Shown here in pieces: positions 11,270 through 60,734 of a stretch of DNA of 64,000 nucleotides. How positions within the stretch are numbered: position 1 is the first letter of the stretch; the number at the start of each line of letters is the position of its first letter. The notes beneath the pieces were generated by a model, which searched no databases, was not told the DNA's origin, and worked only from the letters and a program-made list of their open reading frames with translations. The translations under genes and the position numbers were made by a program. The DNA comes from Promethearchaeota archaeon (GTDB lineage Archaea > Asgardarchaeota > Lokiarchaeia > Sigyniarchaeales > SOKP01), in NCBI GenBank assembly GCA_048941265.1, contig JBHLNT010000001.1, positions 1-64,000 of the forward strand, in the 5' to 3' direction.

Positions 11270-11292
11270 ATTTTTAAATTTTTTTTTTTATT
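11270..11292 (+). terminator. Probable archaeal T-tract terminator
   Basis: A run of about 11 T shortly after the stop codon of 8966..11269. Confidence 0.4.
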
Positions 11293-11474
11293 GTAAGATT
11301 TATAAATAAAATCCCTTAATTTTAAGAAATGGATATTCTTTTTATATAATATATTTAAATATTAATGAATATTTATCAAAAAATCAGCTATATATCTAAA
11401 AACAAGTTCTTAATTCTATTTGTGAATTACACAGAAATAAATAAAAGTATATTAAACCTCTAGGAAAATATTAG

Positions 11475-15758: not shown

Positions 15759-15784
15759 TTTTTAATAAAATAAATTACATTTCA

Positions 15785-17833: not shown

Positions 17834-17844
17834 GATTTTGAGAA

Positions 17845-25161: not shown

Positions 25162-25195
25162 AGTAAATTTAAATTAATCATAGACAAAAGTATAG

Positions 25196-27489: not shown

Positions 27490-27514
27490 TTTTCTAACAA
27501 TTTACTTTTTAAAA

Positions 27515-28042: not shown

Positions 28043-28517
28043 TGATTTTTTTTAATGCTTTTTCGACTCCAAACTCAACTTTTTCCATAACTTTTTGATA
28101 TTCATCTGATTCAAAATCAATTGGGTCTGGAATTTCAATATTATCTTTTTCTCCAATAAAATCAAATAATAAGTAGACTTTCTCATTAAGATTCTTAATA
28201 TTTTTAAATTTTCTTTTAAATTTCTTTATGTGCCACTGCTCTTCGAAACCAAGAATTAAATCCTGTTTAAATATTAAGTCTTCATCAATTTGTTTACCCT
28301 CAAAATCACTGAAATCAATACCTTTATCGTTAAGATACTTAGCCGTTCCCTCTCGGGGTGTTTTAAAATAATTATAAAGTCCAGCAGAATCAAAATTTAC
28401 GTCTTTTAAATTCTCTTTAAATTTTGTTTCTTTTAACCATTTTGCAATATATTCTGCTCCAGGACTTCTTGATGTGTTCCCGCTACATAAAAATAAGACA
28501 TTTCTAATCCTTCCCAT
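28008..28517 (-). CDS. Low-molecular-weight protein phosphatase (LMW-PTP family)
   Basis: VLFLCSGNTSRSPGAE, DSAG, EIPDP. Confidence 0.88.
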   Translation of the reverse strand: MGRIRNVLFLCSGNTSRSPGAEYIAKWLKETKFKENLKDVNFDSAGLYNYFKTPREGTAKYLNDKGIDFSDFEGKQIDEDLIFKQDLILGFEEQWHIKKFKRKFKNIKNLNEKVYLLFDFIGEKDNIEIPDPIDFESDEYQKVMEKVEFGVEKALKKIIEINKKVEENN

Positions 28518-41840: not shown

Positions 41841-42731
41841 CTATTTTTGAGAATAGATCTGATTGATTGCTTCTTTTAATATGGCAAAAATTTTTTCTCT
41901 ATAATTTGGATTAATTGCAATCATGCCATGAACTTTAATCGGTGAAGGAAGATTCTCAGGTTGGAAGAGAATTTTCTCACAAAATTCGGGAGTGAGCCGA
42001 TTAGGAAGGTCTTGTTTATTAGCAATTCCAATTATCAATGTATCCTTATGATATTTTCCTAAGATATCACTTATGATTTCCTTTGATGCATTTAAATTCT
42101 CAAATGTAGAATCTAATACTAAAAGTGCAATGTGAGTCCCTTCTAATAGACTTCTCCATAATGAGTGAAACTGACGCTGACCAGCAAAGTCCCAGAAAAT
42201 AACTGGTAGATTTCCAAGTTCAGGACTCTCATAATTGGCTATATCAGCAGTTATGGTAGGAACGTATTCTAAGTCAATATCTTTACCGCATATTAAATGT
42301 AGTAGCGTTGTCTTCCCAACCCCTCCATAACCTATAATAGATACCTTAACTGCACCTAATATCACATTATCAATAGCTTTTTCAAATCTGTCAAAAACCG
42401 AACGATCTCCATCCCAAGCCCCACCTTCAAAAACCATCCCATATTCATCAATGAATTTAGCCCTAATGCTATTAATTTTTGAATTTATATGTGCATCATC
42501 ATCTTCCAAATCAGCACATACTACAATAATTAAAGATCCTACAATTGTATAGAAATATTTAAAATCTTCAGTGGCAGTGGATTTTATATCGGATTGGCTA
42601 ATCTCTTTTATAAATCCCGAAAAAGCAGAAAGAAAACCAGATAAAAGATCACGATCTATTTCAGTATCACCATAATTTCTGAAGAATAACGATTTTCCGT
42701 CTTTGAGCATTATGTTGACGTATTGTATTAT
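41841..42731 (-). CDS. Longin domain - small GTPase (Arf-like) fusion
   Basis: Longin (GKSLFFRNY...LLSGFLSAFSGFIKEI) followed by GYGGVGKTT, YVPTI, WDFAGQ, NKQD. The first longin strand (IQYVNI) lies upstream of the listed ATG at 42710. Confidence 0.88.
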   Translation of the reverse strand: MIQYVNIMLKDGKSLFFRNYGDTEIDRDLLSGFLSAFSGFIKEISQSDIKSTATEDFKYFYTIVGSLIIVVCADLEDDDAHINSKINSIRAKFIDEYGMVFEGGAWDGDRSVFDRFEKAIDNVILGAVKVSIIGYGGVGKTTLLHLICGKDIDLEYVPTITADIANYESPELGNLPVIFWDFAGQRQFHSLWRSLLEGTHIALLVLDSTFENLNASKEIISDILGKYHKDTLIIGIANKQDLPNRLTPEFCEKILFQPENLPSPIKVHGMIAINPNYREKIFAILKEAINQIYSQK

Positions 42732-42860
42732 ATTTTACCACTTCAGAAGTTTTTTATTTATGTACTATATTATTAAAATATATTTATTAAATAAACTTGA
42801 TAAATTAAAAATTATTTTTTTCCAAAATTTAGATCTTTATTTGAAACAGAGGAATGTTTA

Positions 42861-43487
42861 ATGCCAAAATCGGATGATTTGAATCAGGGAGATATTGCTA
42901 AGTTGATTGAAAATTTAAATGAAAAAATGAACGGATTTTCTTCAATCATTCAAAAGTTCGGATTAGATATTATTACAAAAATGGGGCAAACTAATTCTAA
43001 AATAAAAGTACTTTCTGATAAAGTAGATAAACTTGATAAGACTACTTTAGATTTAAAGGCATTACTTCCAAAATTAACCAATATTATAGATAATCAAAAT
43101 ATTTTGGAATCAGAAATCGATCTTATAAAATCCTTAATTCAAAGAACGAGTACTTCAATGCCACAGAATGAGCTTGAAAGAGAGATTGAAAGAGACGAAT
43201 CTATTACAATGAATAAACAAGAAGTCACTGACCAATTTAAAGAATTACTGAAAATTTTAAATGATACAGAAGAGAACCAAAAGATTAAAAAAGAATTACA
43301 GAAAATAAAGGAAAATATCTTTGAATTTACTGGAGGTCATAAAATTCTTTATGAAATTTCGCAAGTTTTGAACAAAATGAATAATGATCAATCCATTTCC
43401 GAAAGTTTGAGAAAGGAACTTAAGGAAAAAATCGAATTTTGGATTGTTAAGTTGCAAAGCACACCATTTAAAAAAGCAATAAAGTAG
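42861..43487 (+). CDS. Hypothetical coiled-coil protein
   Basis: 208-aa ORF with heptad-like pattern and an upstream GAGG. Confidence 0.7.
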   Translation: MPKSDDLNQGDIAKLIENLNEKMNGFSSIIQKFGLDIITKMGQTNSKIKVLSDKVDKLDKTTLDLKALLPKLTNIIDNQNILESEIDLIKSLIQRTSTSMPQNELEREIERDESITMNKQEVTDQFKELLKILNDTEENQKIKKELQKIKENIFEFTGGHKILYEISQVLNKMNNDQSISESLRKELKEKIEFWIVKLQSTPFKKAIK

Positions 43488-43538
43488 AAATACTATAATT
43501 CAAAAAGTGGTAAAATATTTAAAATAAAAATTGATTAA

Positions 43539-44108
43539 TTATCCCTTAGTTCTATATGTAAATACTAAGTTAGCAATCTTTTCAAAGATTTCATTAACGC
43601 CATTTCCCGTTAACGCAGAAGTTTCGAAATAAGGTGCATTTAATTCCTCGCTAAGGTGATTTGCCATGGGGAGGATAATCTTTCTTTCATCCTTTAAATC
43701 GATTTTATTTCCGACTAAAATTCGGGGTATCGCGCTAAGTCCATATTTTACTGTGGTATTGTACCAATTCTTAACATTTGAGAATGTGGAACTTCTCGTA
43801 ACATCGAATACAAGCATCATACCATCAGCTCCATTAAAATACGGTTTATGCAGCATGTAGAATTGGGGCTGTCCTGCAACGTCCCAGAGCATTAGATTTA
43901 CTAAAGCCTCTGCACCTTTATCTTTAACTATGACTTGCTCCTTGACAATATTAACACCTACAGTCGGAATATATTGCGTCTTAAATTTTTTTGTAGCAAA
44001 TTTTGTTAGGAGGCTTGTTTTTCCAACCGCCGGATCACCAACCACGATTACCTTAAAGATAGATTCAGTCTTTCCTTGAAATACTATATCTTCATCTTTT
44101 TTCGACAT
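43539..44108 (-). CDS. Rab-like small GTPase
   Basis: FKVIVVGDPAVGKTSLL, YIPTVG, WDVAGQ, YFNGADG.MLVFDVT, GNKIDL, FETSA; no C-terminal Cys motif. Confidence 0.93.
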   Translation of the reverse strand: MSKKDEDIVFQGKTESIFKVIVVGDPAVGKTSLLTKFATKKFKTQYIPTVGVNIVKEQVIVKDKGAEALVNLMLWDVAGQPQFYMLHKPYFNGADGMMLVFDVTRSSTFSNVKNWYNTTVKYGLSAIPRILVGNKIDLKDERKIILPMANHLSEELNAPYFETSALTGNGVNEIFEKIANLVFTYRTKG

Positions 44109-47850: not shown

Positions 47851-49071
47851 ATGGAAAAAAATTTCCAAAAAAGATATTATTTAATATTTTTCTCTACAAT
47901 TCTTGGACCACTTACAACAAATTCATTAGTTCCAATCTTTGAGGATTTAAGACTTAATTTTGGTTTAAATTCAATTGCTTTAGTTTCGCTAGCAATTTCA
48001 TTTTATATTCTTCCCTTCGCTGTTTTCCAATTATTTGCGGGAACTTTTTCTGATATTGTTGATAAAAAAATTGTTTTAATAATAGGATTTATTATTTTTA
48101 TATTAGGTTTGCTATTAAGTTTAATAGCCGTTTTAATTAAAGTGTTCTATTTATTTCTCTTTGGGTTTTTAATCCAAGGAATTGGTTTTTCTTTTATCAA
48201 TCCTACAATTTTGGCAATATTGAGTATAATTTCTCCTGAAGATAAAAAGGGGATAAATATGGGAATTTATAACTCTTCATCAGGATTAGGTGTAAGTCTA
48301 GGAGCTCTTTTATCTGGATTTCTTGCTAATAATTTTAAGAGCGGTTGGGTTCTATTATTTATAATTAATCCCATCATAGCTTTCTTAGCGTTAATATTAT
48401 TATTAATAGCATTAAAAAAATGCGAACCTCTAATTTGTAGAACTTTTGAGACAACAATAAAACATTCTGCAAATGATAAACCTTCTAAACTCTTTGCTAC
48501 TTTTCAACAATTAAAAGATAATTTAAAGCTACCCATCCTTTTATTAGGTACTGCGGGATTCATCTGCTTTTTTATAGTTATAACATTGACGAATACTTTA
48601 AATGAACAATTACGGATTTCATTATCTGGTTTAAGTGAACAAGAAGTCATTTTTTATGTGAGTTTGATTTTAACAATAAACGGATTGATATCTGTGCTCT
48701 TATCTCCTATAACTGGTTTAATGTTAAAAAAAATTAATCCAAATATAATGCTAGGTATAGGTTTTTTACTTATGTTTACAATGATTTTTATGCCTTATGG
48801 TACTTCCATAACTGATTTTATGGTTATTAGTTTCATAACGTACATTGGTTCAGCATTTGTTTGGCCTGCGTTATTTAAAATTTCGATGAATATAAATCCT
48901 GAGGCAGAGGGTACAAATTCTGCCATAATAAATAGCTTAAGATTCATAGGTTATTCTTTAGTAGGCCCATTTTACTTATTCTTTGGAATTCCTATTATCT
49001 ATTTTTGGGTGATTAGTCTTAATTTTGTAGCAATTATCGTAGTTATCATGTTAAGCAAATTGAAAGTTTAG
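47851..49071 (+). CDS. MFS transporter
   Basis: About 12 hydrophobic segments; motif A-like AGTFSDIVDKK. Confidence 0.9.
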   Translation: MEKNFQKRYYLIFFSTILGPLTTNSLVPIFEDLRLNFGLNSIALVSLAISFYILPFAVFQLFAGTFSDIVDKKIVLIIGFIIFILGLLLSLIAVLIKVFYLFLFGFLIQGIGFSFINPTILAILSIISPEDKKGINMGIYNSSSGLGVSLGALLSGFLANNFKSGWVLLFIINPIIAFLALILLLIALKKCEPLICRTFETTIKHSANDKPSKLFATFQQLKDNLKLPILLLGTAGFICFFIVITLTNTLNEQLRISLSGLSEQEVIFYVSLILTINGLISVLLSPITGLMLKKINPNIMLGIGFLLMFTMIFMPYGTSITDFMVISFITYIGSAFVWPALFKISMNINPEAEGTNSAIINSLRFIGYSLVGPFYLFFGIPIIYFWVISLNFVAIIVVIMLSKLKV

Positions 49072-49078
49072 AAAAAGA

Positions 49079-50506
49079 TTATTTAATTTGGTTTTTACGT
49101 GCTTCTAAAATTTTAGCTCTTTCATTTAGGATATTTCTTACTGTTTTTGAATCCTCTGGATACCATTTCAACGTAAAGAGCCATACCATAATGCCCGGGA
49201 TTATAAATACCAATAACATTAAAATCGTTAATTGGTAATTAGTTCCAGTCATAACTAATAATATTCCTACTATAATTGCTCCCAAGCCCCACCCTATACT
49301 CTCAACCAGTTGATTCCAAGACACTATCTTGCCCTGGGCTTCAGGTAAATTTATTTCTTGTATAAGGGGAGCTTGATTTACCATGAATAAGCTCCCAATC
49401 ACGTTTGATGTAAAAAACAGCATACCCATTACCCAAATTATTGGTAGAGAAAATAAATATGGAATGTCTTGTCCTTCAGATACAGAAAAATGAGGCAACG
49501 GAATAAAAAAGATAGCCACAAAACTTACCATTCCAAAACTTAGCGAGAAGATTATAAAATAAATTCTCCTAATTGGATGTTCTTTGCAAACTTTATCAGA
49601 GAGCCAACCAAAAGCTAATTGCCCGATTAATCCTGCGGTTAATCCAAACACAATCATAAAGACCGCAGTAAATATAGGGGAAAGATTATGAGGAGGAGTT
49701 TGAATATAAGGCAAAATTAACAGAATGGCACTTCCCATTAGAATATTCGAAGAAATACCCTCTACTAGGGCAACTATATTAGTTTTGCTGAACATGGTTT
49801 TTTTCATCATTTCACGATCAATTTGAAAATCATACTTAATATCATCATGTTTAAGAATCTGCATTAATTCTATTTGTTGAGCACCTCTCTTTGGCTCATC
49901 CATATGTATGAAAAAGATGAATCCAGCAAGTACTATTAATACGCCTAAACCCCAAAAATATTCCCTCCAAAAACCATATTGGACAAAAAAGGAAGCTACT
50001 AAAAATCCAAATGTCATAAATAATCCCATCATGAGCCCCATGACGCCAAAAAAACGTGATCTATGGGATTTTGGAACCAGATCATTTGAGAGAGAAGCAA
50101 TTGAGGGCCACGATCCCCCTGCGAATAAAGCAAAAATGAATATAAAAAATAAGAAATAAAGCCATGTCTCAAAACCTTTTCCCTCTTCCGCAAAACCCAA
50201 CATAGCAATGCTAAAACCTCTAAAAATGGAAATCATAAAGAGGATTTTCGTACGACTAAATTTATCGATTAACATTCCAAAAAAAAGACCGCATAAAGAG
50301 GAAACCCAAAATAATACAGTTAACAATATCCCAATTTCTAAGGCATGATAGGGCTCATCTGGCCACATTATAAGAGATAATTGAACAATTAAGATGGTGA
50401 AACCAGCATAGGCCAAAGTTTGAAGACCTCCCAGGAGATAGAGAGACCAAAAAGTTCCATGTATTGAGAATTCTGAATTTGATGTATCAGCAGGTTCCTC
50501 TGGCAT
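49079..50506 (-). CDS. MFS transporter
   Basis: FGMLIDKFSRTK, RSRFFG, GFWREYF, EPKRG; about 12 TM. Confidence 0.9.
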   Translation of the reverse strand: MPEEPADTSNSEFSIHGTFWSLYLLGGLQTLAYAGFTILIVQLSLIMWPDEPYHALEIGILLTVLFWVSSLCGLFFGMLIDKFSRTKILFMISIFRGFSIAMLGFAEEGKGFETWLYFLFFIFIFALFAGGSWPSIASLSNDLVPKSHRSRFFGVMGLMMGLFMTFGFLVASFFVQYGFWREYFWGLGVLIVLAGFIFFIHMDEPKRGAQQIELMQILKHDDIKYDFQIDREMMKKTMFSKTNIVALVEGISSNILMGSAILLILPYIQTPPHNLSPIFTAVFMIVFGLTAGLIGQLAFGWLSDKVCKEHPIRRIYFIIFSLSFGMVSFVAIFFIPLPHFSVSEGQDIPYLFSLPIIWVMGMLFFTSNVIGSLFMVNQAPLIQEINLPEAQGKIVSWNQLVESIGWGLGAIIVGILLVMTGTNYQLTILMLLVFIIPGIMVWLFTLKWYPEDSKTVRNILNERAKILEARKNQIK

Positions 50507-50729
50507 AATTTTTTTATACCATATTATCTTTTTAGTTTTAAACTGTAGAATGAGATTTCAAATTTTAAGATATTGAAAAGTAAATATGAGAATTAACCAT
50601 TATTATAAGATAAGACTTAAGAAAAAAATTTGAGATTTAAAATACGATGTAATTTTTTGATACTTATTTTTATAAACCTTGATCTCGTTTATATTTACAA
50701 TGTCTTATAAATAAATTAAATTTAATAAA

Positions 50730-52133
50730 ATGAGCGTATCTCAAAAACAAAATGTAGGTTCTGATGAATCTAGATATTCTTCTAAAATTCATTTATCATA
50801 TAGCCTTGGGAGCTTTTTCGACACTTTTTACGTGGCAAGTTTTACTGTCCGCGTTATATATTTTTACGAGAATGAACTCTTCTTATCCATTGTATTGATA
50901 GGTACTGCTTTTATTATATATGGTTTTTGGAATATGATCAACGATCCTTTGATTGGGTGGTTTGCAGATAAAGAAACGCGATTTACTAAGCGATGGGGTC
51001 GGAGATTTCCATGGTTTTTTATAGGCGCTATAAGTATAAATTTTGTTTATATTTTTATATATACAGTTCCTGTTAACGATCAATTAGGAATGTTTATATG
51101 GCTGCTGGTAATTATTTGTTTATTTGAATTATGTTATTCTCTTTGGCAAGTTAGTTGGCTTTCTCTCTATCCCGATAAGTTTCGCTCCCAGAAGGAACGA
51201 ACGAAATTAGGAGCATTAACTACCATATTTGGTCAATTAGGGACAGTTATGGGAATTGTGATTCCTCCTTTATTTATCATATATGGAAATGTCGAATCTT
51301 ATATTTTTGCCGCGATAGCAGTAGCTATTATTTCGCTTATAATCGCCTTGCTCATTATTCCAGGTATGCACGAGGATGAAGATATAATCGCACGCGAACT
51401 TAAAAACATCCAAGAACAAAAGAAAGAAGAGGAATCGTACTTACAAATAGTAAAATTCTCTATGAAGGAAAAAAATTTTGTCGCTTATGTTCTATGGTAT
51501 CTTTGCTATTATATGCTTCCCTTATTGATGCTCTCATCACTTTCTTATTGGGTCATTTATATTGTAAAATATAGAAATCCAATGATAGAAACATTATTAG
51601 CGGGGATTTTTATGATAGGTGCCTTAGTATCAGTTCCGTTATGGTTAAAAATGGGGAGAAAGTTTGGTATACGAAAGATTTACATTTATGGGAGTTTGAT
51701 GGCTTCAATTTGCTTTATTCCGCTGATATTCGTTTCTGATCTAACTCTCACTCTTACATTTCTTTTTCTAATTGGATTTTTCTATGGATCTTGTTGGACA
51801 TTATTATATCCCGGATTCTCTGAGGTAATGGATGAGCTTGTGGTCAAAAGTGGAGAACGTAGAGAAGGTGCTTACACAGGAATTAGAACCTTTATTGGAC
51901 GGTTGTCCTTTGTGCTACAAGCGGTCATTTTCTCAATAGTTCATACCACCACAAAATTCGAAGCTGGAGCAGAAACCCAAAAACCATTAGCATTATGGGG
52001 AATACGAATTATCATGGTAATAGCTCCAATGGTATTTCTTTTCATTGGTTTCCTTCTTATGGCAATCTTCTATGATCTTACCCCCGAAAAAGTGAACGCT
52101 AATAAAGCTCTATTGAAAGAAAAGAATTTTTAA
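50730..52133 (+). CDS. MFS transporter, GPH (glycoside-pentoside-hexuronide) family
   Basis: WNMINDPLIGWFADK.TRFTKRWGRRFPW, ERTKL, GERREGAYTG. Confidence 0.9.
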   Translation: MSVSQKQNVGSDESRYSSKIHLSYSLGSFFDTFYVASFTVRVIYFYENELFLSIVLIGTAFIIYGFWNMINDPLIGWFADKETRFTKRWGRRFPWFFIGAISINFVYIFIYTVPVNDQLGMFIWLLVIICLFELCYSLWQVSWLSLYPDKFRSQKERTKLGALTTIFGQLGTVMGIVIPPLFIIYGNVESYIFAAIAVAIISLIIALLIIPGMHEDEDIIARELKNIQEQKKEEESYLQIVKFSMKEKNFVAYVLWYLCYYMLPLLMLSSLSYWVIYIVKYRNPMIETLLAGIFMIGALVSVPLWLKMGRKFGIRKIYIYGSLMASICFIPLIFVSDLTLTLTFLFLIGFFYGSCWTLLYPGFSEVMDELVVKSGERREGAYTGIRTFIGRLSFVLQAVIFSIVHTTTKFEAGAETQKPLALWGIRIIMVIAPMVFLFIGFLLMAIFYDLTPEKVNANKALLKEKNF

Positions 52134-52354: not shown

Positions 52355-53371
52355 CTGAAAAGAGCGCTAATTAGAGCAGATGGAAGTAATAAAATCGGAA
52401 TGGGCCATTTAACAAGGCAAATAGATATTGCAAATGAGTTAAAGAAGCTCAATTATAACATAATATTTCTCTCAAAAAACTATCCAGAAGGAATATTATT
52501 ACTTGAAGAAAGTCAGTTTGAAATTATAAAATTATCAACAGAATACCAAACGATAAATGATTCAATTCAAGAAATAAACGAGGTATTAAATTCCTATAAT
52601 AAAATCTTTGATTTTATCATATTAGATCTTTTTGAAGATTTTGATAATCAAGAATATTTAAACAATTTAAAGCTCTTTTGTAGCAAATTGTTTGTTTTAA
52701 GCGATGAGCCAAAACAGTTCTATATTCAAGTGAATGCTGTTTTCGCTTTTAGCGAAAATCAAGAGTCATTTAACTATAATAATTTGAGAACTAAATACTA
52801 TACTGGTCTAAAATACTTTCCTTTACACTCTAAATTCCAGGAAGTACCAAAGAAAAAAGTCAATAAAAAAGTTAGTAAAGTTCTTATTACTTTTGGTGGA
52901 AGTGATCCTAATAATTTTTCAGGCAAATTGGTAAGTTCCTTAAAGCAACTTGATCTAAATGTAATATATACGCTAATCCTAGGTGCTGGATATTCGAAAG
53001 AGAATTATCATGATATTATGAGGGAAAAATTTGATAATCTCATAATTAAAACGAATATAAAAAATATGAACGAGTATTTAATAGAAACGGATATTTGTAT
53101 TTGCTCAGCAGGAAATACAGTAATAGAAGCATTGGTATGCGGAGTCCCTTGTATTGTCCTTCCTCAAACTAAATTAGAAAGTGAACGCGCTAAAGCTTTA
53201 GAAAAAAAACAATTGATTATTAATAAGGGATTGGAATTTACTACTAAGAGATTAATTACTGTAATTAATAACCTACTTTCTGATTATTCACTAAGGAAAA
53301 AATTGAGCAAAAATGCTCAAAATTATTTAGATGGAAAGGGCATTAAAAGGATTGTAAATATAATTTCTTAA
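52355..53371 (+). CDS. PseG/SpsG-family GT-B protein (nucleotide-sugar hydrolase/glycosyltransferase)
   Basis: ALIRADGSNKIGMGHL (extends upstream of the listed ATG at 52400 to a CTG), LITFGGSDP, ICSAGNT..EAL..GVP, DGKG..RI. Confidence 0.82.
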   Translation: MKRALIRADGSNKIGMGHLTRQIDIANELKKLNYNIIFLSKNYPEGILLLEESQFEIIKLSTEYQTINDSIQEINEVLNSYNKIFDFIILDLFEDFDNQEYLNNLKLFCSKLFVLSDEPKQFYIQVNAVFAFSENQESFNYNNLRTKYYTGLKYFPLHSKFQEVPKKKVNKKVSKVLITFGGSDPNNFSGKLVSSLKQLDLNVIYTLILGAGYSKENYHDIMREKFDNLIIKTNIKNMNEYLIETDICICSAGNTVIEALVCGVPCIVLPQTKLESERAKALEKKQLIINKGLEFTTKRLITVINNLLSDYSLRKKLSKNAQNYLDGKGIKRIVNIIS

Positions 53372-53553
53372 GAGGAAAAAAAGTTTTAAAAGAATGAAGC
53401 TTAAAGTCCAAAATCCTAATGTATTTTATTAAAAATTTTTACATCTTAAGGAGATAATATCTTTAAAATTATTAGACTTCTTGTAATGTTTAAATGTTTA
53501 TTTAATTTAATTAATCAAATATTTGTTTATATAAAACTTAAGATACTAGAATT

Positions 53554-54315
53554 ATGAAAAACGACCAGTTAATAGAAAAACTCCGAAAACGGGAACTTAA
53601 AGCAGTAGTATTTGATTTCGATGGTACAATCTTAGATATTAAGAAACCTCTTGAAAAATCTATTGAAGAAGTCTTTACTGAGAAAGGTATTGCTTCTGAC
53701 TTAGAATCATCTGTACTTGAAATTGGTGCTGTGCTCGAATCTATACAAGGATACCCTATTCCTAAAATTTTACTGCAATCATATGACATTTTCCAACAGA
53801 TAACAACGCTAGAAAAATTAACTTTCTTAAAAAAATTTAGAGTTGCCTTGAAAATTTTCGCTAAATATCAAACTTATTCTAAAGAGGCTGAATTATTCCC
53901 CGGTATAAAACCACTATTAGAATATCTAAATAAAGGTGCAGACCTTTATATTATCTCTCATAATCAAACAAATAGTGTTAGAGAACACCTTCAAAAAGAA
54001 GAAATTGAAAAGTATTTCAAAGGAGTATATGGAGCTGATGAATTGCCTGCATTAAAACCAAGTCCTGATGCCCTTTTACCTGTCATAGAGCAATACAAAA
54101 ATACCAGCAGTAAGAAATTTTTGATCTTAGGTGATATGCCATCTGATATTGAATCTGGTCAAGAAGCAGGAGTTCATACCATTGGAATCGCTAGTGGAAT
54201 CAGTAAGAAGGAGATACTGGAGAATTGTAATCCCGATTTATTATTCGATTCAATTATTGAATTGAATGAATTACTTGGTATAAATAATGGTCGTAGTTCG
54301 GATTCTAAAGTTTAA
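53554..54315 (+). CDS. HAD-superfamily phosphatase
   Basis: VVFDFDGTI, IISHN, KPSP, LGDMPSDIESG. Confidence 0.9.
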   Translation: MKNDQLIEKLRKRELKAVVFDFDGTILDIKKPLEKSIEEVFTEKGIASDLESSVLEIGAVLESIQGYPIPKILLQSYDIFQQITTLEKLTFLKKFRVALKIFAKYQTYSKEAELFPGIKPLLEYLNKGADLYIISHNQTNSVREHLQKEEIEKYFKGVYGADELPALKPSPDALLPVIEQYKNTSSKKFLILGDMPSDIESGQEAGVHTIGIASGISKKEILENCNPDLLFDSIIELNELLGINNGRSSDSKV

Positions 54316-54348
54316 AATTAAAAATTATAAAAAATAAAACATAAAAGG

Positions 54349-56043
54349 TTGATGAATATGGAACTTGAAAAATCAGATATAAAACCAACAAAGAAAGAAA
54401 AAATTGGTAAAGAACAAGTAGATTATGATGTAGTGGAACAAGAACTAGAGCTTAAGTATGAAAAAACGTCTCATGATGCGATGTATAAAGTTTTAAAATA
54501 TAATCCTATCGACTGGTTAAATGATAAGTACCGAAAATTTATTGATATGCATCAATTAACTGAGATTGAGGGTCAATTACAATGGTGGGCTGCATATATT
54601 TACGTTAAGGAAATCCTAAGGTTACTTTTCGATCATAAAGTAGAAAATCCCTATAAGACTTTATTTCCTGAATATGGCCCTGGAATCATCATCTCAAATC
54701 ATGAAAGCCATTTTGATCCATTTTTTATTGGAGCTACATGTCATAGACGTATTCGATGGATGAGTAAAATTGAAAACTTTAAGACACCAATTGTAAGAAC
54801 TTTGTTTACAAATTTAGGTGCTTTTAGACTTGATAGAGATAACCCTGAACCAGGTTGGGAGATGGCAAAAGAAGTGATTGATAATGGAGGATGGGTTGGA
54901 ATCTTTCCAGAAGGCACTCGCACAGAAGATGGGTCTCTTGGTGAATTTCATACTGGTGCGGTAAGGCTAGCAATAGAAAAGAAAGTACCTATTGTTCCGA
55001 CATGTGTAATCGGTTCAAGAGCAGCACTACCGAAAGGCAAATTGGTTTTAAAACCAGCTCGTGTAATTACTCGTGCAGGACTTCCGATTTCCTATGATCA
55101 ATATAACATTGATACTGTATCATATCAAGATATTAGAAGACTTTCAGATGAATTACGACAGGAAGTTATTGATTTAATGGAAGGTAATTACCACATTGAA
55201 GGTGAAGAAAAGGTTCAACAGCTTTCCATAGGGGAACCTAAGGATATGGCAGAAAAGCCAAAAGGTAATCCTGTTATGAAATTCTTTAAAAAACTCTCAG
55301 CACATTTCTTACAATTATGGGATGATTCTTGGTATGCCCTCTTAAAATCTTTAGAAGTCTATGGTTTAAAAGATTACTTTGGATCATTCATATATAATTT
55401 ATCGGGTAATATCGTTCATAGCCTCTGCAACCTTATGCTTCCATATAAAGTCATTGACTACGACAAATATATTCCCAAAAAAGCTGAAACTGGTGCCCTT
55501 ATATGCTCAAATCATAATTCAGAATGGGATGTAATAATACTAGCAACAAGTTTTCAGCAATGGGGTGGTCATTATATCTATCAACAATCAAAAGAATCAC
55601 TCTTTAGATATCCTGTTGTAAACGCTTGGGTAAGGTCTTGTAGAGCATTTCCACTTAAAAGAGGTGAGCACGATGTTGGTTCTTATAATTATGCTTTAGA
55701 ACGCTTAAAAGAGGGAAAATGGATAGTAATCTATCCAGAAGGCACAACTAATACGGGAGGCGGGAAATTATTAGAAGGACACACTGGTGCTATGCGTTTA
55801 GCTATAGAAGCAAAAGTTCCAATTTATTTAGTTGGAATCACTGGAACTGAAGATGTCTATCCAAAACGGGCCAAAATGCTTAATTTCAATAAAGGAGTTA
55901 TATTGAAAGCAGGAGAACCATTTATGGAGCATCAAAATTACTGGGACAAACCTATGCCTAGCTATAGTGAATTAAGGAATCTTACCACAAAAATGATGGC
56001 AAGAATAAAAGACTTGCTTATGTATGACGATAAACGAGCATAA
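54349..56043 (+). CDS. Tandem (two-domain) PlsC-like glycerolipid acyltransferase
   Basis: Domain 1: SNHESHFD, IFPEGTR, KVPIVP. Domain 2: SNHNSEWD, IYPEGT, KVPIYLV. Both retain HxxxxD. Confidence 0.9.
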   Translation: MMNMELEKSDIKPTKKEKIGKEQVDYDVVEQELELKYEKTSHDAMYKVLKYNPIDWLNDKYRKFIDMHQLTEIEGQLQWWAAYIYVKEILRLLFDHKVENPYKTLFPEYGPGIIISNHESHFDPFFIGATCHRRIRWMSKIENFKTPIVRTLFTNLGAFRLDRDNPEPGWEMAKEVIDNGGWVGIFPEGTRTEDGSLGEFHTGAVRLAIEKKVPIVPTCVIGSRAALPKGKLVLKPARVITRAGLPISYDQYNIDTVSYQDIRRLSDELRQEVIDLMEGNYHIEGEEKVQQLSIGEPKDMAEKPKGNPVMKFFKKLSAHFLQLWDDSWYALLKSLEVYGLKDYFGSFIYNLSGNIVHSLCNLMLPYKVIDYDKYIPKKAETGALICSNHNSEWDVIILATSFQQWGGHYIYQQSKESLFRYPVVNAWVRSCRAFPLKRGEHDVGSYNYALERLKEGKWIVIYPEGTTNTGGGKLLEGHTGAMRLAIEAKVPIYLVGITGTEDVYPKRAKMLNFNKGVILKAGEPFMEHQNYWDKPMPSYSELRNLTTKMMARIKDLLMYDDKRA

Positions 56044-56062
56044 GAAGCGAGAGGTTTAACTG

Positions 56063-57142
56063 GTGGAAGCGACGGAAAAATCGTCAGGTACAAAAATCAA
56101 GGTTGGTATACCTAGAGCACTTCATTTTTATAGGTACTTTCCTTTTTGGAAAAAACTTCTTGAAGAATTAGATGTGGAAATTATATTAACACCTAACACT
56201 AACAAGAAGATTGTAGAGGAAGGTGTAACTCATGGGTTTGGTGAGTTATGTATACCTGTAAAAATTTATTATGGACATGTAATGAAATTAATACGGGAAC
56301 ATCCCGATTTAGATTTCTTATTTGTACCTCGATATGTTTCAGAAGTAAAAGAAGCATACTTTTGTCCTAAATTTCTGTCGTTACCAGATGTCATAAAAAT
56401 TTTGCCGAACGCTCCAAAACTTTTGACTTTTGAAGTTAATATAAAAGAATTTCCAATTGCCACAGCAGCCGCTGAACTTGCTAAACAATTAGGAAAAAGC
56501 CAATCTAAAGGATTAGATGCATATAAGAAAGCGCAAGAATATTTTGATGAGTATCATAAATTTTTAAGGGAAGGTGCCCCTGTCAATCATGCACTACGAT
56601 TAGTAGAATATAACCGTCCTTTCACTTTGCCAAAAAAGAAACGTAAGGGCGATATTAAGTTCTTGTTATTAGGACATGCATATAATATTTTTGACACATT
56701 TATTAATCTAGATTTTCAAAAAAAATTACAAGATCAAAATGTTGAGGTTTTAACTATTGAAAATCTGCCAGAATCAATATTCAAGGTACCAGTTATCGTG
56801 AATAGGCGTTTGAGAAACTATTGGAGACATGAGGAGGAAATCATGCAATCAATTAGGTACTTTATGACGAAAGGACGAAAAGAAATCGATGGAGTGGTTT
56901 TTCTTATTAGTTTTGCTTGTGGACCCGACAGTCTCATTTCCGAGTTAATAATGAGAGATATGAAAGTCGTAGGGCTTCCATTTTTAGAGATAATAATGGA
57001 TGAACATTCTGGTGAGGCGGGTTTGCTTACAAGAGTTGAAAGTTTCGTAGAGATGGTAAGAAGGAAGAAGCAAAAACTCTCAGAATTAGAAAACAAGCAA
57101 AAACTTGGAGTTTTAGAAGAGATTGATACTTCATTTGCCTAG
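56063..57142 (+). CDS. DUF2229 / acyl-CoA dehydratase activase-related protein (PlsA reductase-domain-like)
   Basis: KVGIPRAL, ELCIPVKIYYGH, YFCPK, LLGHAYN..D, SFACGPDS, DEHSGEAGLLTRVESF. Confidence 0.85.
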   Translation: MEATEKSSGTKIKVGIPRALHFYRYFPFWKKLLEELDVEIILTPNTNKKIVEEGVTHGFGELCIPVKIYYGHVMKLIREHPDLDFLFVPRYVSEVKEAYFCPKFLSLPDVIKILPNAPKLLTFEVNIKEFPIATAAAELAKQLGKSQSKGLDAYKKAQEYFDEYHKFLREGAPVNHALRLVEYNRPFTLPKKKRKGDIKFLLLGHAYNIFDTFINLDFQKKLQDQNVEVLTIENLPESIFKVPVIVNRRLRNYWRHEEEIMQSIRYFMTKGRKEIDGVVFLISFACGPDSLISELIMRDMKVVGLPFLEIIMDEHSGEAGLLTRVESFVEMVRRKKQKLSELENKQKLGVLEEIDTSFA

Positions 57143-57155
57143 GAGGTATTAAAAA

Positions 57156-58340
57156 ATGTTAATTTCCTTTCCAAATATGGGCCCAAACTGGGTAGCATTC
57201 AAATCTTTATTCGAGTCTTTGGATTTAGATGTCATCGTACCTGACCCCACAAACCGAGAAGCGATTAAAGTAGGTGTTAAATATAGCCCAGAATTCGTAT
57301 GTTTCCCATTTAAGGCCACCCTCGGAGATTTTAAAAATGCATTGGATAAAGGTGCTGATACTCTCGTGATGGCAATTGATTGCGGACCATGTCGCTTTGG
57401 CTTCTATGCTTCTGTTCAAGAGAGACTTTTGAGGGATATGGGTTATGATGATTTTACATTAATTCCCTTAGATCAAGCAGACTTACTCAATTTTAAATGG
57501 GTAAAAGCTCTTGAAGAAATTTCAGGAATGCAAGGTTTAGTTAAATATCCTAAATTTGTAAAGGCTGTCATCATATTTTTAAAAAAAGCTAAATTGTTAG
57601 ATGATATTCAGACTGCAGAAGGTCTTTTCAGGGCTTATGAACGGAATCAAGGAGATACTACTCGTACTGTAAAAAATTTATTAAATTATCTTGATCAAAC
57701 CAATTCCATTTCTGAATTACGTAAATTTCGAAAGGTAATTTTAGATTTATTTAGTCGGATTGATATTGATAAAAATATTAGTCCTTTGAGAGTAGGGCTT
57801 TCAGGTGAGATTCATATAAGTTTAGAACCATATGTTAATCTAGATATTCGGAGAAAATTGGGTGAAATGGCGGTTGAGATCCATCAATCTCTAAGTCTAT
57901 ATGATTGGGTAGTCCATAAATTTCACTTAAATTATCACAGAAAATGGCTTGAACATCTTGCCCGACCGCATGTACCGATGGATATAGGCGGAGAATGTGT
58001 CTGGGTATTAGGAGAATATATAGATAAAGGCAAGGCATCCTTCGATGGCTTCGTTCATGAATATCCGTTTACGTGCATGCCGGAAGTTGTAGCCCGGACG
58101 ATTATTACTAATAAGCTTAAGAAAATATATGATTTACCGGTATTATTTTTCTCCTTCGATGAACAGAGTGGTCTTGAGGGATTTCGTACCCGTCTTGAAG
58201 CGTTTTGCGACCTCATGCATTCCCGACGTGATCAAGAAATAAAAAATAATCCCGAATTTTCGGCAATAGGAAAGAAGATTTATCCACATTTTGGAAATCA
58301 TTTTTATGATGAATGTTATCAAATAATTAAAGCTTCATAG
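57156..58340 (+). CDS. 2-hydroxyacyl-CoA dehydratase-related Fe-S subunit (PlsR-like)
   Basis: SPEFVCFPFK, GPCRFGFY, VGLSGEI, PFTCMPE, DEQSG..GFRTRLEAF; GGAGGT SD upstream. Confidence 0.8.
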   Translation: MLISFPNMGPNWVAFKSLFESLDLDVIVPDPTNREAIKVGVKYSPEFVCFPFKATLGDFKNALDKGADTLVMAIDCGPCRFGFYASVQERLLRDMGYDDFTLIPLDQADLLNFKWVKALEEISGMQGLVKYPKFVKAVIIFLKKAKLLDDIQTAEGLFRAYERNQGDTTRTVKNLLNYLDQTNSISELRKFRKVILDLFSRIDIDKNISPLRVGLSGEIHISLEPYVNLDIRRKLGEMAVEIHQSLSLYDWVVHKFHLNYHRKWLEHLARPHVPMDIGGECVWVLGEYIDKGKASFDGFVHEYPFTCMPEVVARTIITNKLKKIYDLPVLFFSFDEQSGLEGFRTRLEAFCDLMHSRRDQEIKNNPEFSAIGKKIYPHFGNHFYDECYQIIKAS

Positions 58341-58354
58341 AGGATATATGGAAG

Positions 58355-59377
58355 ATGGTACAAGTTTCAGATAAAATTATTAAAGACGATGGTAAAAAAG
58401 ACGCATTTTTAGGTATAGATGTAGGGTCAGTATCCCTTAAATTCGTGTTAATGGATAGAGATGGTAATGTGCTTACTTCAGTTTTTCTCAGAAATCGTGG
58501 TTCTCCTATTGATTCCGTTAAAGATGGAATGTCAAAATTGAGGGAGCAAATAGAAGCAGATGATAATTTACAAGGATATGCAATTCGTGCATGTGGAACT
58601 ACTGGATCTGCGAGATATTTAACTAAAGCGGTTGTAGGAGGCGACATTGCAAAAACAGAGATCATTGCCCACGCAGTAGGGGCTCAATCAGAATATCCGG
58701 ATGTACGCACAATTTTAGAGATTGGAGGGCAAGATTCTAAAATAATTATTCTTCGTGATGGAATCATAGTGGATTTTGCTATGAATTCTGTTTGTGCCGC
58801 AGGTACCGGCTCATTCCTTGACCACCAAGCGTCGAGATTAGATCTACCCATCGAAGAATTTGGTGATTGGGCGGTAAAATCGAAAAATCCTTTATCAATC
58901 GCGGGCAGGTGTACTGTTTTTGCCGAATCAGATATGATTCATAAGCAAAACGCAGGGTATTCTCGAGAAGATATTATTGCGGGATTATGTGATTCATTAG
59001 TACGAAATTATCTAAATAATTTAGCTAAAGGAAAAGAATTAGAAGAACCCGTTGTCTTTCAAGGGGGAGTATCCTTTAATAAGGGTATTGTTCAAGCCTT
59101 TGAAAGACATTTAAACTGCAAAGTTGTAGTCCCAAAATATAATGTACTGATGGGAGCTCTTGGAATGGCAATTCTTGTTAGAGACCATTTCTTGCGTAAT
59201 GAGACTGAAACTGCTTTTAGAGGGCTTGAAGTAGCAGAAATTAAATTTGTAACCTCTGCTTTTAATTGTGGGGATTGTCCCAATAATTGTGAAATTATCC
59301 AGGTAAAAATGCCCGAATTGGGCAATGAAGTAATAGCCCGCTGGGGCAGCAGATGTGGAAAATGGGAGGTGTTTTAA
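58355..59377 (+). CDS. Acyl-CoA dehydratase activase (BadF/BadG/BcrA/BcrD ASKHA ATPase, 4Fe-4S)
   Basis: LGIDVGSVS, TTGSAR, EIIAH, EIGGQDSK, MNSVCAAGTGSFL, RCTVFAESD, FQGGV, and C-terminal FNCGDCPNNC...SRC. Confidence 0.92.
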   Translation: MVQVSDKIIKDDGKKDAFLGIDVGSVSLKFVLMDRDGNVLTSVFLRNRGSPIDSVKDGMSKLREQIEADDNLQGYAIRACGTTGSARYLTKAVVGGDIAKTEIIAHAVGAQSEYPDVRTILEIGGQDSKIIILRDGIIVDFAMNSVCAAGTGSFLDHQASRLDLPIEEFGDWAVKSKNPLSIAGRCTVFAESDMIHKQNAGYSREDIIAGLCDSLVRNYLNNLAKGKELEEPVVFQGGVSFNKGIVQAFERHLNCKVVVPKYNVLMGALGMAILVRDHFLRNETETAFRGLEVAEIKFVTSAFNCGDCPNNCEIIQVKMPELGNEVIARWGSRCGKWEVF

Positions 59378-59586
59378 AAACGTCCAAACTTTTAAAAGAT
59401 TTTTTAGAATTAGGAAAAGAGTTAGGAAAGGAAATTTTTGAGACGGCTAGCCATAGGGCTAAGCTTTCAACAATTTTTGATTTATTTACAGAAAAAGTTA
59501 TACCCTCTTTCGTTTCCGAAAAGGAACTGAAAGAATATTATGAAAAAAGAATGGAAGAAGTAAATGATTTTATTATTAAATTATAA
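59353..59586 (+). CDS. Small amphipathic hypothetical protein
   Basis: Fills the gap within the operon; start uncertain (ATG 59362, or ACG 59380 behind GGAGGTG). Confidence 0.6.
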   Translation: MWKMGGVLKTSKLLKDFLELGKELGKEIFETASHRAKLSTIFDLFTEKVIPSFVSEKELKEYYEKRMEEVNDFIIKL

Positions 59587-59601
59587 GAGGAGGAAAAAAA
59601 T

Positions 59602-60291
59602 ATGGCTCAAAATGTAGCAATATCGGAAGAAGAAAAACCAAAATTAAATAAAAAACAATTACAGGAGGATGCTTTATACGGTCTAGCTAAAGCAGTAGGA
59701 GGTGCCGTATTAAAGAATTTTGCGGGGTTAAAACTCGAAGGGGAAGAAAATATCCCTTATAGAGGAAGAGCAATCTTAACAACTATAAGTAAAAATGTAA
59801 TACGTGATATGCTAATTTTATCACAATTGACAGGCAGAAAAATCCATTTCATGCTACCAGCGAAATTGATGAAACATCAAGTTGCGGGTCCAATATTTAA
59901 ATCTCTTGGGATGATTCGAGGTACAGAGAGTAAAGATGATACTGAACCGATTGATAAAGTATTCGAAATCATAAATGAAAAAGGGGATTTAGTTGCTATG
60001 ACCCCGGAAGCAAAATATGATCGAGATATACAAGTCAAATCCGTGGCAGGTATAATTAAATTCGCTGTAGCTGCTAATGCTCCAATAATTCCAATCGCAG
60101 TGACTAAAGAAAAGGCAAAATTATTTAATTTGATAACTATCGATGGTATAAAGGTAAAGGTTGGTAAGCCTATTCCTGTTTCAAAGAATTTAAGTCGAGA
60201 AAAATACCGCGATCAGAGATATGAATTAGCTGAGGACATAGTGAACATTATCGATTCTCTAAAATATACGCCAGAACAAGATGAGGACTAA
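59602..60291 (+). CDS. Degenerate PlsC-like acyltransferase (lacks catalytic His)
   Basis: LEGEENIP..G, MTPEA and APIIPIAV, KVGKPI match the LPLAT fold, but HxxxxD reads SKNVIRD. Confidence 0.78.
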   Translation: MAQNVAISEEEKPKLNKKQLQEDALYGLAKAVGGAVLKNFAGLKLEGEENIPYRGRAILTTISKNVIRDMLILSQLTGRKIHFMLPAKLMKHQVAGPIFKSLGMIRGTESKDDTEPIDKVFEIINEKGDLVAMTPEAKYDRDIQVKSVAGIIKFAVAANAPIIPIAVTKEKAKLFNLITIDGIKVKVGKPIPVSKNLSREKYRDQRYELAEDIVNIIDSLKYTPEQDED

Positions 60292-60324
60292 TAATTAGAA
60301 AATTAGATAAAAAATAAAAAAGGA

Positions 60325-60600
60325 GTGAAAAAAGATATGGAAAATCAAGATAATCCAAATATAGAAAAAGCTAAAATTGATTTACCGGAATATACCAAAA
60401 AATTAGAAGAAAAGGCAAAAGAGGCTCTAAACCCGGATAAGATGAAAGAGATGATTTCAGATTTGAAAGTAGACAATGTTGTAGGGGACCTTTTCTATGA
60501 ATCTGTAAAGCTATTCTTTGATATTGGATTCGATCTTGCTGATAAGCTAAATCTTGATTTAATTCAAGATTTTATCAAAAAAGATAATGAGAAAAAATAA
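60325..60600 (+). CDS. Small acidic/amphipathic hypothetical protein
   Basis: Last co-oriented ORF of the operon, with an AGGAG SD and T-tracts downstream. Confidence 0.65.
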   Translation: MKKDMENQDNPNIEKAKIDLPEYTKKLEEKAKEALNPDKMKEMISDLKVDNVVGDLFYESVKLFFDIGFDLADKLNLDLIQDFIKKDNEKK

Positions 60601-60734
60601 ATAAAAAATTTTTTTGGTATTATTTTTTTATCTTAAACTGGACCTTTAGGTTTTTTTTTTGTTAGATTTTGGGATATTAACGAAAAAAGGAAACAAATGA
60701 GAATAATAAATTTATTAAATTTAAAAAAGAGGCT

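Follow-up and report, generated by a model that had tools for sequence, protein, structure and literature searches.

The 64,000-nucleotide (nt) stretch analysed here, called the window, is the beginning of contig JBHLNT010000001.1 of a Promethearchaeota archaeon of the class Lokiarchaeia. At 53,554–60,600 it carries an operon of eight genes that joins PlsC-type acyltransferases to a three-gene module for a putative ATP-dependent radical enzyme (D1, D2 and Act, together the trio). The operon is a genuine archaeal feature and is conserved. In the trio we see a split relative, with a single activase, of the plasmalogen synthase PlsA/PlsR and the glycerol ester reductase Ger, and not a shown orthologue of either. 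We put it at an even chance that the operon makes acyl esters on a glycerol-type backbone and then reduces the ester to an ether, with an acylated lipid as the most likely substrate. That substrate and that reaction are favored because the linkage to acyltransferases is repeated: in the gene order of four families, in fusion variants, and in the presence of all the PlsC-type domains within the operon. Domains were assigned by Pfam and NCBIfam profile searches of the window proteins, and the features are as follows (lengths in amino acids, aa).

53526..53533, + strand: TTTATATA, TATA-box-like element, 21–28 nt 5' of the first ATG, read from the sequence
53554..54315, + strand: HAD-IA phosphatase (COG0546/Gph-like), here HAD; HAD_2 PF13419, 97 bits
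54349..56043, + strand: PlsC2, double LPLAT/AGPAT acyltransferase, 564 aa; PF01553 twice, 184 bits; TIGR00530, 157 bits
56063..57142, + strand: D1 (Red1-like), 359 aa; DUF2229, 157 bits; HGD-D C-terminus, 26 bits
57156..58340, + strand: D2 (Red2-like), 394 aa; DUF2229 N-terminal part, 37 bits; HGD-D C-terminus, 18.7 bits
58355..59377, + strand: Act, ASKHA activase, 340 aa; BcrAD_BadFG PF01869, 161 bits; TIGR00241, 194 bits
59353..59586, + strand: s77, small helical protein without Cys, 77 aa; no Pfam or NCBIfam match
59602..60291, + strand: PlsCd, His-less PlsC-like protein, 229 aa; PF01553, 39.7 bits
60325..60600, + strand: s91, small open reading frame, 91 aa, with the motif G-D-L-F-Y-x-S-x-K-L-F-F; no Pfam or NCBIfam match
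60601..60632, + strand: terminator-like stretch rich in T, with T7 twice, 3' of the final stop codon, read from the sequence

A first-pass annotation of this DNA had described eight co-oriented, closely packed genes, several of them with Shine–Dalgarno (SD) motifs, and this is borne out in coordinates, gaps and motifs. All eight open reading frames (ORFs) lie on the plus strand, with gaps along the operon of 33, 19, 13, 14, −25 (an overlap), 15 and 33 nt. D1, D2, Act and PlsCd each have an SD-like motif of the GGAGG type ahead of them, and PlsC2 and s91 a weaker AAGG motif. Inspection of the sequence ahead of the ATG of the HAD gene, the first of the operon, found no SD motif, and we infer a leaderless-type start there.

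The trio has the domain set of PlsA/PlsR/Ger, namely PF01869, PF09989 (DUF2229) and a PF06050-like HGD-D C-terminus, the last with scores in D1 and D2 that fall below the Pfam cut-off of 28.4. The first-pass annotation had distinguished one DUF2229 protein from one dehydratase-like Fe-S subunit. This needs correction: both D1 and D2 are DUF2229 plus HGD-D-like proteins with three invariant cysteines each, D2 is a paralogue of D1, and they are the only places where PF09989 is found in the window genome. The D1 cysteines C63, C101 and C286 are kept in 142/142 aligned homologues; in D2, C49 and C79 are kept in all 112 aligned sequences and C307 in 110 of them. These six cysteines of Red1 plus Red2 type (3+3) are invariant across the Asgard, DH-DH and activase-fused forms. 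In Act, the core cysteines C147 and C186 are kept in 93/93 aligned activase domains, and we take them to be the ligands through which a dimer holds a bridging [4Fe-4S] cluster, as in HgdC. Act also has a C-terminal four-cysteine motif (Cys4), C305-x2-C308-x3-C312...C334, just as the first-pass annotation had noted with its CxxCxxxC...C. The Cys4 motif is present in 13/13 Asgard sequences, in 40/40 second activase domains of the fusions and 0/40 first ones, and in 48/48 bacterial single activases beside split modules. The matches of Act in the Protein Data Bank (PDB) are HadI (5e-39), MbdQ (6e-36), HgdC (9e-34) and DCCP-R (2e-23), together with MbdP. They cover the core to residue ~284 only, and none has the C-terminal extension. 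The sequence of Act, then, is that of an Act2-type activase, predicted to inject electrons at the expense of ATP. PF01869 occurs in three places in the window genome, in frames of 262 aa and 272 aa and in the operon frame of 348 aa.

The trio was also compared to ten longer homologues. It is collinear in order with Act1/Act2-Red1-Red2 in all eight of them that are fused to an activase, seven of 1375–1416 aa and one of 1011 aa. In the seven, Act aligns with residues ~3–270 and ~310–630, and over its whole length with the second region; D1 aligns with residues ~660–980 and D2 with ~1000–1400. The 1011-aa fusion has a single activase match, with D1 and D2 in the same order. The other two, of 708 and 764 aa, join D1 to D2 and have no activase. 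An Act1-Act2-Red1-Red2 plan has been published for Ger and for PlsA plus PlsR (PMC13159169, PMC12838417; here and below, papers with PMC numbers are cited for the portions of their text that were accessible). The homology to Act2, Red1 and Red2 is thus full-length, in the same order, and accompanied by common cysteines.

Of the two catalytic-type subunits, D1 was modeled with AlphaFold (AF2, 78-sequence alignment, pLDDT 94.5). Foldseek places this model with HadB/C, DCCP, BzdNO and MbdON (best PDB entries 3o3n, 7yyl, 6eno, 8s02 and 9g87) at E values of 2.8e-10 to 4e-7, TM scores of 0.47–0.55 and 11–17% identity. By sequence, a search with D1 reaches the HGD-D-type families with its last 60 residues only. 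Therefore, the trio belongs in the BCR/HAD/DCCP superfamily and not among the amino-acid-fermentation dehydratases. Grouping with the latter had been named as an outcome that would undo the first-pass annotation, and it is not what was found: HadBC, DCCP and BzdNO match at the level of fold only, at ~14% identity. D1 and D2 are best described as paralogous subunits with three invariant cysteines each and a predicted HadBC/BzdNO/DCCP fold.

Among characterized systems, PlsA/PlsR (Clostridium perfringens CPE1194/1195) and Ger (Thermotoga maritima Tmari_0479 and Desulfatibacillum alkenivorans) share with the trio the PF01869, PF09989 and PF06050 C-terminal domains, the Act/Red1/Red2 order, the six Red1 plus Red2 cysteines and the Cys4 of the second activase, as well as an anaerobic host and a lipid-gene context. 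The trio differs in consisting of three genes in the order Red1-Red2-Act, in having one activase instead of two, in its 27–32% identity, in a separate D1 clade and in its archaeal host. It is also encoded with PlsC-type acyltransferases, a pairing that the accessible part of the literature does not describe for plsAR or ger. HadBC/HadI, HgdAB/HgdC, BzdNOPQ, MbdONPQ and DCCP/DCCP-R have in common with it the fold of D1, the activase core and the logic of ATP-driven electron injection, but D1 is only ~11–17% identical to them, their activases lack the C-terminal Cys4, and they act on CoA thioesters or small molecules.

The acyltransferases had been called bacterial-type in the first-pass annotation, and they are of the PlsC/LPLAT type: as a control, the PF01553 profile was detected in 10 bacterial genomes and in 0/4 archaeal ones. 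In the window genome, all three PF01553 domain matches fall inside this operon. PlsC2 scores 157 bits against TIGR00530, above the curated cut-off of 103, which places it in the PlsC/LPLAT (AGPAT) family. It has HX4D motifs at H118 and H389 and PEGT at 187 and 463. In the window sequence and 12 orthologues of the same family, HX4D is kept in both domains in 13/13, and PEGT is kept in domain 2 in 13/13 and in domain 1 in 11/13 (the variants being AEATR in locus L035 and PEATR in L038). The first domain matches the PlsC of T. maritima (PDB 5kym) at 3.2e-13, and its nearest named relatives outside the Asgard archaea are bacterial LPLATs at ~29–31% identity (Tissierella, Planctomycetia, Desulfovibrio). 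PlsC2 shares PF01553/TIGR00530, HX4D and PEGT with the T. maritima enzyme; it differs in having two catalytic domains in one 564-aa chain, a separate His-less copy and no detected hydrophobic N-terminal anchor. An N-terminal helix pair as in 5kym was looked for by hydropathy alone, and the maximum 19-residue Kyte–Doolittle mean of PlsC2 is 1.08, with no window above 1.1. PlsCd was previously called a degenerate PlsC, and rightly: ISKNVIRD replaces HX4D and TPEAK replaces PEGT in 5/5 sequences (the window and four orthologues). Its TIGR00530 score is 35 against the cut-off of 103, so that it falls outside the catalytic PlsC group. Lacking the catalytic His, PlsCd therefore cannot use the usual His-Asp mechanism, and it is probably a non-catalytic subunit.

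The HAD protein has the superfamily nucleophile motif DxDxT as DFDGT at residues 21–25. The motif is present in the window sequence and in 9 of 10 full-length orthologues of the same family; it was not found in one ORF of that family cut at a contig end, nor in the two long forms from two related families, which read DWNGT. Its best NCBIfam matches are phosphoglycolate phosphatases, all under their cut-offs, and its relatives in the PDB are small-molecule phosphatases. As judged from these matches, HAD appears to be a small-molecule, COG0546/Gph-like phosphatase of the C1-cap type, to which a substrate cannot be assigned since every equivalog model scores below its cut-off. As for the two small ORFs, orthologues of s77 are 56–68% identical in L037, L043, L044 and L045, which are the four other loci with an Act-PlsCd junction, and always lie between Act and PlsCd. 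A structure atlas search with s77 yielded no usable match, and the atlas model is poor (pLDDT 0.54). Recognizable forms of s91 occur in two of those four loci, at 38% identity in L043 and as an 87-aa ORF with the same motif in L037; none was found in L044 or L045.

The phyletic pattern was studied in 301 genomes sampled from the phylum, in which f1 denotes the family of the window and f2–f4 denote further families of the same class, with a threshold for D1-like genes of E ≤ 1e-10. D1-like genes occur in 58/68 genomes of f1, 7/7 of f2, 1/1 of f3, 1/1 of f4, 27/28 of f7 and 11/11 of f29, with few elsewhere. PF01553 occurs in 63/68 of f1, 7/7 of f2, 1/1 of f3, 1/1 of f4, 11/11 of f16, 21/21 of f24, 3/3 of f27, 2/2 of f30 and 1/5 of f18, and was not found in the genomes sampled from f7 (0/28), f9 (0/76), f14 (0/19) and f29 (0/11). 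D1 and PF01553 thus occur together regularly only in the class of the window (f1–f4).

Twenty related loci were then mapped by tblastn and ORF-by-ORF BLAST: 13 from f1, two from f2, one each from f3 and f4, and three from f7/f29. PlsC2 is immediately upstream of D1 in 13/13 f1 loci. HAD is immediately upstream of PlsC2 in eight of these and within 4 kb in two more (10/13 in total); no HAD was found in L033 or L038, and in L040 the sequence stops too early to judge. It is missing from both f2 loci mapped. Directly after D1, the order D2-Act-s77-PlsCd is the same as in the window in three f1 loci (L043–L045), and in three f1 loci the contig ends after D1. Both f2 loci encode a PlsC with HX4D intact, a His-less PlsC, D1, D2 and Act. 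In f3 and f4, a triple PF01553 fusion (872–876 aa, with a PlsCd-like third domain) and a long HAD (DWNGT) lie ahead of D1-D2-Act. Clustering of PlsC genes on the same strand as D1-D2-Act therefore extends to f2 (2/2), f3 (1/1) and f4 (1/1), with the acyltransferase domains in the states of two singles, a double and a triple. The three f7/f29 loci have D1-D2(-Act) at 31–37% identity and no PlsC. The conservation of the operon in Asgard archaea, proposed earlier as a check, accordingly holds for the coupling of PlsC to D1 across f1–f4.

The related loci contain several further arrangements. The triple fusion (L048:9026-14564, L049:3825-7941) has HX4E in domain 1, HX4D without PEGT in domain 2, and a His-less domain 3. 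The accompanying HAD (genomes G240 and G294) has 490 aa with a C-terminal extension of ~250 aa that matches no family, and in L048 a LarA-like gene stands between the two. Additional reductase modules interrupt the same operon in L036:3781-13335 and L037:4207-9001 (genomes G113 and G162). Between D1 and D2, both of these loci have a second set of genes: a D1 paralogue that carries a fused FAD domain of the VAO type (812–837 aa), and a further Act and D2. L035 and L036 encode a 977–985-aa Act-Act-DUF2229 protein with two PF01869 domains and PF09989, which is the plsA-type arrangement, followed by a gene of 466–469 aa without a family. The window genome has none of the extra reductase modules of L035–L037. 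The fused Act-Act-DUF2229 genes of L035 and L036 may be what was reported, in the accessible text of PMC13159169 and with a filter of at least 30% query coverage, as Lokiarchaeota 'Ger homologues'. Three readings of these insertions were tried and dropped. An apparent selenocysteine in the FAD-fused D1 paralogue, seen as an internal TGA in many matches, proved on ORF extraction to be the terminal stop codon caught in the match. The FAD domain of L036 is not AGPS-like, its nearest solved relatives being cytokinin dehydrogenases at 8e-20 versus AGPS at 4.7e-4, and is a generic VAO-type flavin domain. A PlsR-like partner in the 466-aa gene after the plsA-type gene was not established: the match, from a single comparison, is local, around one Cys motif, at E 0.034.

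It was also asked in the first-pass annotation whether the contig might be a bacterial chimera. This is unlikely because related genomes carry the same cluster in 17 other loci; one of these genomes, G213 (the source of one of the two f2 loci), is a single contig of 4.36 Mb. The best 120 of 1964 D1 homologues are 78–92% identical, and those that are named come from metagenome-assembled genomes (MAGs) of Promethearchaeota, Loki-, Thor- or Hermodarchaeota. The window itself carries Ras/Roc GTPase genes and others common in Asgard genomes. Sequencing depth is alike on flank and operon in run X3 (3.4–5.7); this is a weak hint, from short Logan contigs of which none listed spans the operon borders. 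The G+C fraction is 0.35–0.36 at 54–60 kb versus 0.26–0.33 in the remainder of the window, which could be due to the strong conservation of the proteins (D1 sequences of the family are ~80% identical) or to a foreign source.

We infer from this gene set a scheme in which the reaction, the acyl donor (acyl-CoA), the backbone (glycerol-3-phosphate, glycerol-1-phosphate or an isoprenoid lyso-lipid), the role of HAD and the ether products are all provisional. PlsC2 would transfer an acyl group from acyl-CoA onto glycerol phosphate or a lyso-lipid, and PlsCd may serve as a lipid-binding or scaffold subunit. The window encodes an enoyl-CoA hydratase and an acyl-CoA dehydrogenase at 21162-22115 and 34940-36202; therefore, the organism handles acyl-CoA, the likely acyl donor of PlsC2. 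An Act dimer would drive a low-potential electron, at the expense of ATP, into the Fe-S clusters of a D1-D2 heterodimer, which, by likeness to PlsA/PlsR and Ger of anaerobic bacteria, would reduce the carbonyl of the ester by way of a ketyl radical and yield a vinyl or an alkyl ether. HAD would remove a phosphate from a precursor or the product. Dephosphorylation is the least secure step because HAD is of the small-molecule type, is missing in f2 and has DWNGT in f3 and f4. Of the dephosphorylation step proposed earlier, then, the presence of a HAD with DFDGT stands, and the Gph-like character and the distribution of HAD make the step insecure. A wider claim is that Lokiarchaeia have a class-wide pathway from acyl ester to alk(en)yl ether, giving non-isoprenoid or chimeric isoprenoid/n-alkyl ether lipids beside the archaeal ones, and that the bacterial split DUF2229 modules are likewise lipid ester reductases. 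We hold this tentatively, as possible and short of even.

Several observations weigh against reduction of an ester to an ether by this operon, beginning with the descent of D1. An exhaustive search with D1 reached 2726 cluster representatives with E ≤ 0.001, 407 of them with E ≤ 1e-30. Among the best 150 relatives, those that rank below the Asgard orthologues are mostly split proteins of ~330 aa with 31–42% identity and 170–225 bits. The DH-DH fusions (685–780 aa, from Dehalococcoidia or Chloroflexi where named) score 186–257 bits versus D1, and the activase-fused proteins 119–151 bits (E 1e-29 to 1e-38). The fused forms, to which D1 is just 27–32% identical, are thus outscored by hundreds of uncharacterized split relatives. 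A FastTree tree of 146 rows was built from every second split representative (290–400 aa) plus five picked, every second DH-DH fusion, every fourth fusion of at least 1100 aa and all ~1000-aa fusions, rooted on 12 D2 sequences; a second tree was made by IQ-TREE in quick mode under LG+C20 from a 68-row subsample. The characterized PlsA/Ger sequences lie outside both trees, and are presumed to belong to the fused clade from their published architecture. In both trees, all PlsC-linked D1 sequences form a Loki clade with the FAD-fused paralogue (99 SH-like/99 SH-aLRT), and all the activase-fused forms make up a separate clade (99/99) that excludes D1. The two clades, with a few split representatives, join at 89 and 82, forks that we draw as open, and both runs warned that long branches meet at the root. 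Since D1 is in a Loki clade of its own outside the fused clade, the trio is a split relative, and 'split PlsA/Ger' is to be read as an architectural or superfamily resemblance and not as shown orthology. The split PlsA/Ger-like module of the first-pass annotation is therefore upheld in its same-order, full-length homology and shared cysteines and not in its placement.

Gene content adds to these objections. A PF01869 profile search of the window genome found no gene with two fused activases, as in the published PlsA/Ger arrangement. D1 and D2 are split apart by inserted genes in five f1 loci (L036, L037, L039–L041), and D2-Act was not found near D1 in L035 or L038. Profile searches of the window genome (5.0 Mb, 361 contigs, 91% complete) found neither PlsY (PF02660) nor acyl carrier protein (PF00550); because of that completeness, this is not proof of absence. 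None of the eight operon proteins has a hydrophobic span, the 19-residue Kyte–Doolittle mean being at most 1.76. In the bacterial split-module loci described below, tblastn with PlsC2 and PlsCd matched in 0/77. The accessible text of PMC13274423 states that what PlsA homologues do when they lack the activation domain is unclear, and that sequence does not separate Ger from PlsA. Finally, the sole lipid analysis of a cultured Lokiarchaeon (Imachi 2020, as cited in the part of PMC13400652 that was accessible) reported archaeal lipids only.

The main rival is that D1-D2 and Act use ATP to drive a radical modification of the acyl chain, or of some other group, of an acylated molecule, for example by dehydration or by a dearomatization-type or other reduction, as other BCR/HAD/DCCP members do, with no conversion of ester to ether, and that the acyltransferases supply or consume the substrate of this enzyme. 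We consider this unlikely. In its favor, D1 is outside the activase-fused clade with uncharacterized split modules as its nearest relatives, and its fold fits HadBC, BzdNO and DCCP equally at ~14% identity each. The bacterial split modules also stand amid chain-modifying radical SAM and B12-radical SAM genes, and in L089 (Clostridium oceanicum) an electron transfer flavoprotein and a sigma-54 activator lie beside the module with no acyltransferase. Against it, the sole tested members of the DUF2229 family reduce glycerol esters, as far as the accessible text of PMC13159169 and PMC12838417 goes, Ger and PlsA/PlsR yielding alkyl or vinyl ethers on anaerobic expression in E. coli. The trio has the Act2-type Cys4 and the 3+3 cysteines in common with that tested family, and two relatives have a plsA-type fused gene inserted in the same operon.

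Two other explanations change the substrate. PlsC2 might acylate an isoprenoid lyso-lipid such as geranylgeranylglyceryl phosphate (GGGP), which is the lyso-phosphatidate analogue on glycerol-1-phosphate, and D1-D2/Act might then reduce the ester to give a mixed isoprenoid/n-alkyl diether. GGGP synthase is encoded elsewhere in the window genome, in which PlsY for a first acylation was not found; bacterial PlsC is reported to take both lyso-phosphatidate stereo-forms (PMC13400652, accessible portion), and chimeric lipids were earlier proposed for Lokiarchaeota (PMC6737245, likewise). However, the two intact domains of PlsC2 fit two acylations, and no isoprenoid-lipid genes were found in or beside the operon in the 17 related loci mapped, and we regard the mixed diether as improbable. 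Slimmer still are the prospects of a soluble pathway, in which a small phosphorylated polyol or metabolite is acylated, dephosphorylated by HAD as in compatible-solute pathways, and its product modified by the radical enzyme, or of salvage of lipids from bacterial partners. The lack of hydrophobic spans in all eight proteins, the small-molecule C1-cap type of HAD and three MFS transporter genes upstream (47851-52133) would suit such a role, but PlsA/Ger and many LPLATs are likewise peripheral proteins, the MFS and GT28 neighbors have 0 matches beside the operon in the 17 same-class loci, and the model that PlsC2 exceeds, TIGR00530, is that of a 1-acylglycerol-3-phosphate acyltransferase domain. 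Membership in the operon was considered for the GT28-like gene upstream (52400-53371) and for the MFS genes, and was rejected: GT28 is matched in 0/20 related loci, and a single weak MFS match came from an f7 locus.

The bacterial relatives were surveyed by scanning species genomes with three split representatives, which gave 77 loci. These are mostly from MAGs of Syntrophaceae, Syntrophorhabdus, Syntrophobacterales, Thermodesulfobacteriota and Deltaproteobacteria. By tblastn of the window proteins, all 77 have a match to D1, 64 to D2, 58 to Act and one to HAD. These split DUF2229 modules of Syntrophia and Thermodesulfobacteriota, known as 'acyl-CoA dehydratase activase-related proteins', resemble the trio in having D1, D2 and a single Act with Cys4, and together with the Dehalococcoidia DH-DH fusions they score above the fused forms versus D1 (170–257 bits). 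They differ in the order D2-D1-Act, in identities of 28–42%, in being accompanied by PF03279 and not PF01553, and in having no supported sister relation to the Loki clade. The flanks were examined in 25 loci chosen for their length, from which 77 of 170 flanking ORFs, belonging to 13 loci, were scanned against Pfam. An acyltransferase of the PF03279 (LpxL/lipid A) type lies just 3' of the split module in 7/13 of these, and PF01553 was found in the scanned flanking ORFs of 0/13. The seven are not independent events because the genomes are mutually related. Desulfatibacillum alkenivorans, a member of the same bacterial group, produces alkyl-ether lipids according to the accessible text of PMC13159169.

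One cluster recurs among these bacterial loci (L053–L129), for example in L072:2252-12923, L081:1538-12699 and L099:1358-12594. It consists of an ATP-grasp protein, a polysaccharide deacetylase/DUF3473, GT2, a radical SAM-SPASM protein, D2, D1, Act, a B12-radical SAM protein, PF03279 and a FabD-like protein. This cluster of Syntrophia and Thermodesulfobacteriota looks like an undescribed lipid-modifying gene cluster.

Studies of eukaryogenesis have yet to settle whether Asgard archaea synthesize any lipids like those of bacteria or eukaryotes, and a 2026 review still lists Asgard lipids as open and calls for lipid data (PMC12993045, accessible portion). Homologues of PlsC and PlsY in Lokiarchaeota have been published (PMC6737245, PMC6431249), as have homologues of Ger in Lokiarchaeota and Heimdallarchaeota, along with the proposal that Asgard archaea may make ether lipids of the bacterial type (PMC13159169), again in the text accessible. 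In the earlier literature searched, PlsC and the 'Ger homologues' are separate gene matches in Lokiarchaeota; here they form one conserved 7-kb operon. The coupling of PlsC and reductase in an operon, the split single-activase form and the His-less PlsC were not described in the accessible text of the literature searched, outside which most subscription journals lie. Within this single operon lie all the PlsC-type domains that the genome was found to have; the acyltransferase and reductase functions are therefore coupled, and a complete candidate pathway could be cloned and tested at once. If the pathway is as proposed, it would amount to a living mixed membrane in the lineage closest to eukaryotes. 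These findings also suggest a function for a very large set of uncharacterized split DUF2229 modules (the 2726 representatives above), whose bacterial members also adjoin acyltransferases.

Elsewhere in the window, seven large co-oriented ORFs of 1287, 1287, 767, 770, 656, 682 and 690 aa occupy 1033-19917 and match no Pfam family save TPR repeats in the last two; the pairs of near-equal length suggest tandem paralogues. At 22750-25741, an 803-aa protein with SIR2_2 and many TPRs adjoins a macro-domain protein on the opposite strand, a pair reminiscent of NAD-linked defense or signaling systems. Three tandem genes of the low-molecular-weight phosphotyrosine-phosphatase/ArsC type (LMWPc) lie on the minus strand at 26977-28517. 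At 41841-44108, the genes for a Ras-family (160 bits) and a Roc/Arf-like small GTPase, typical Asgard signature genes, stand around a 208-aa ORF without a family.

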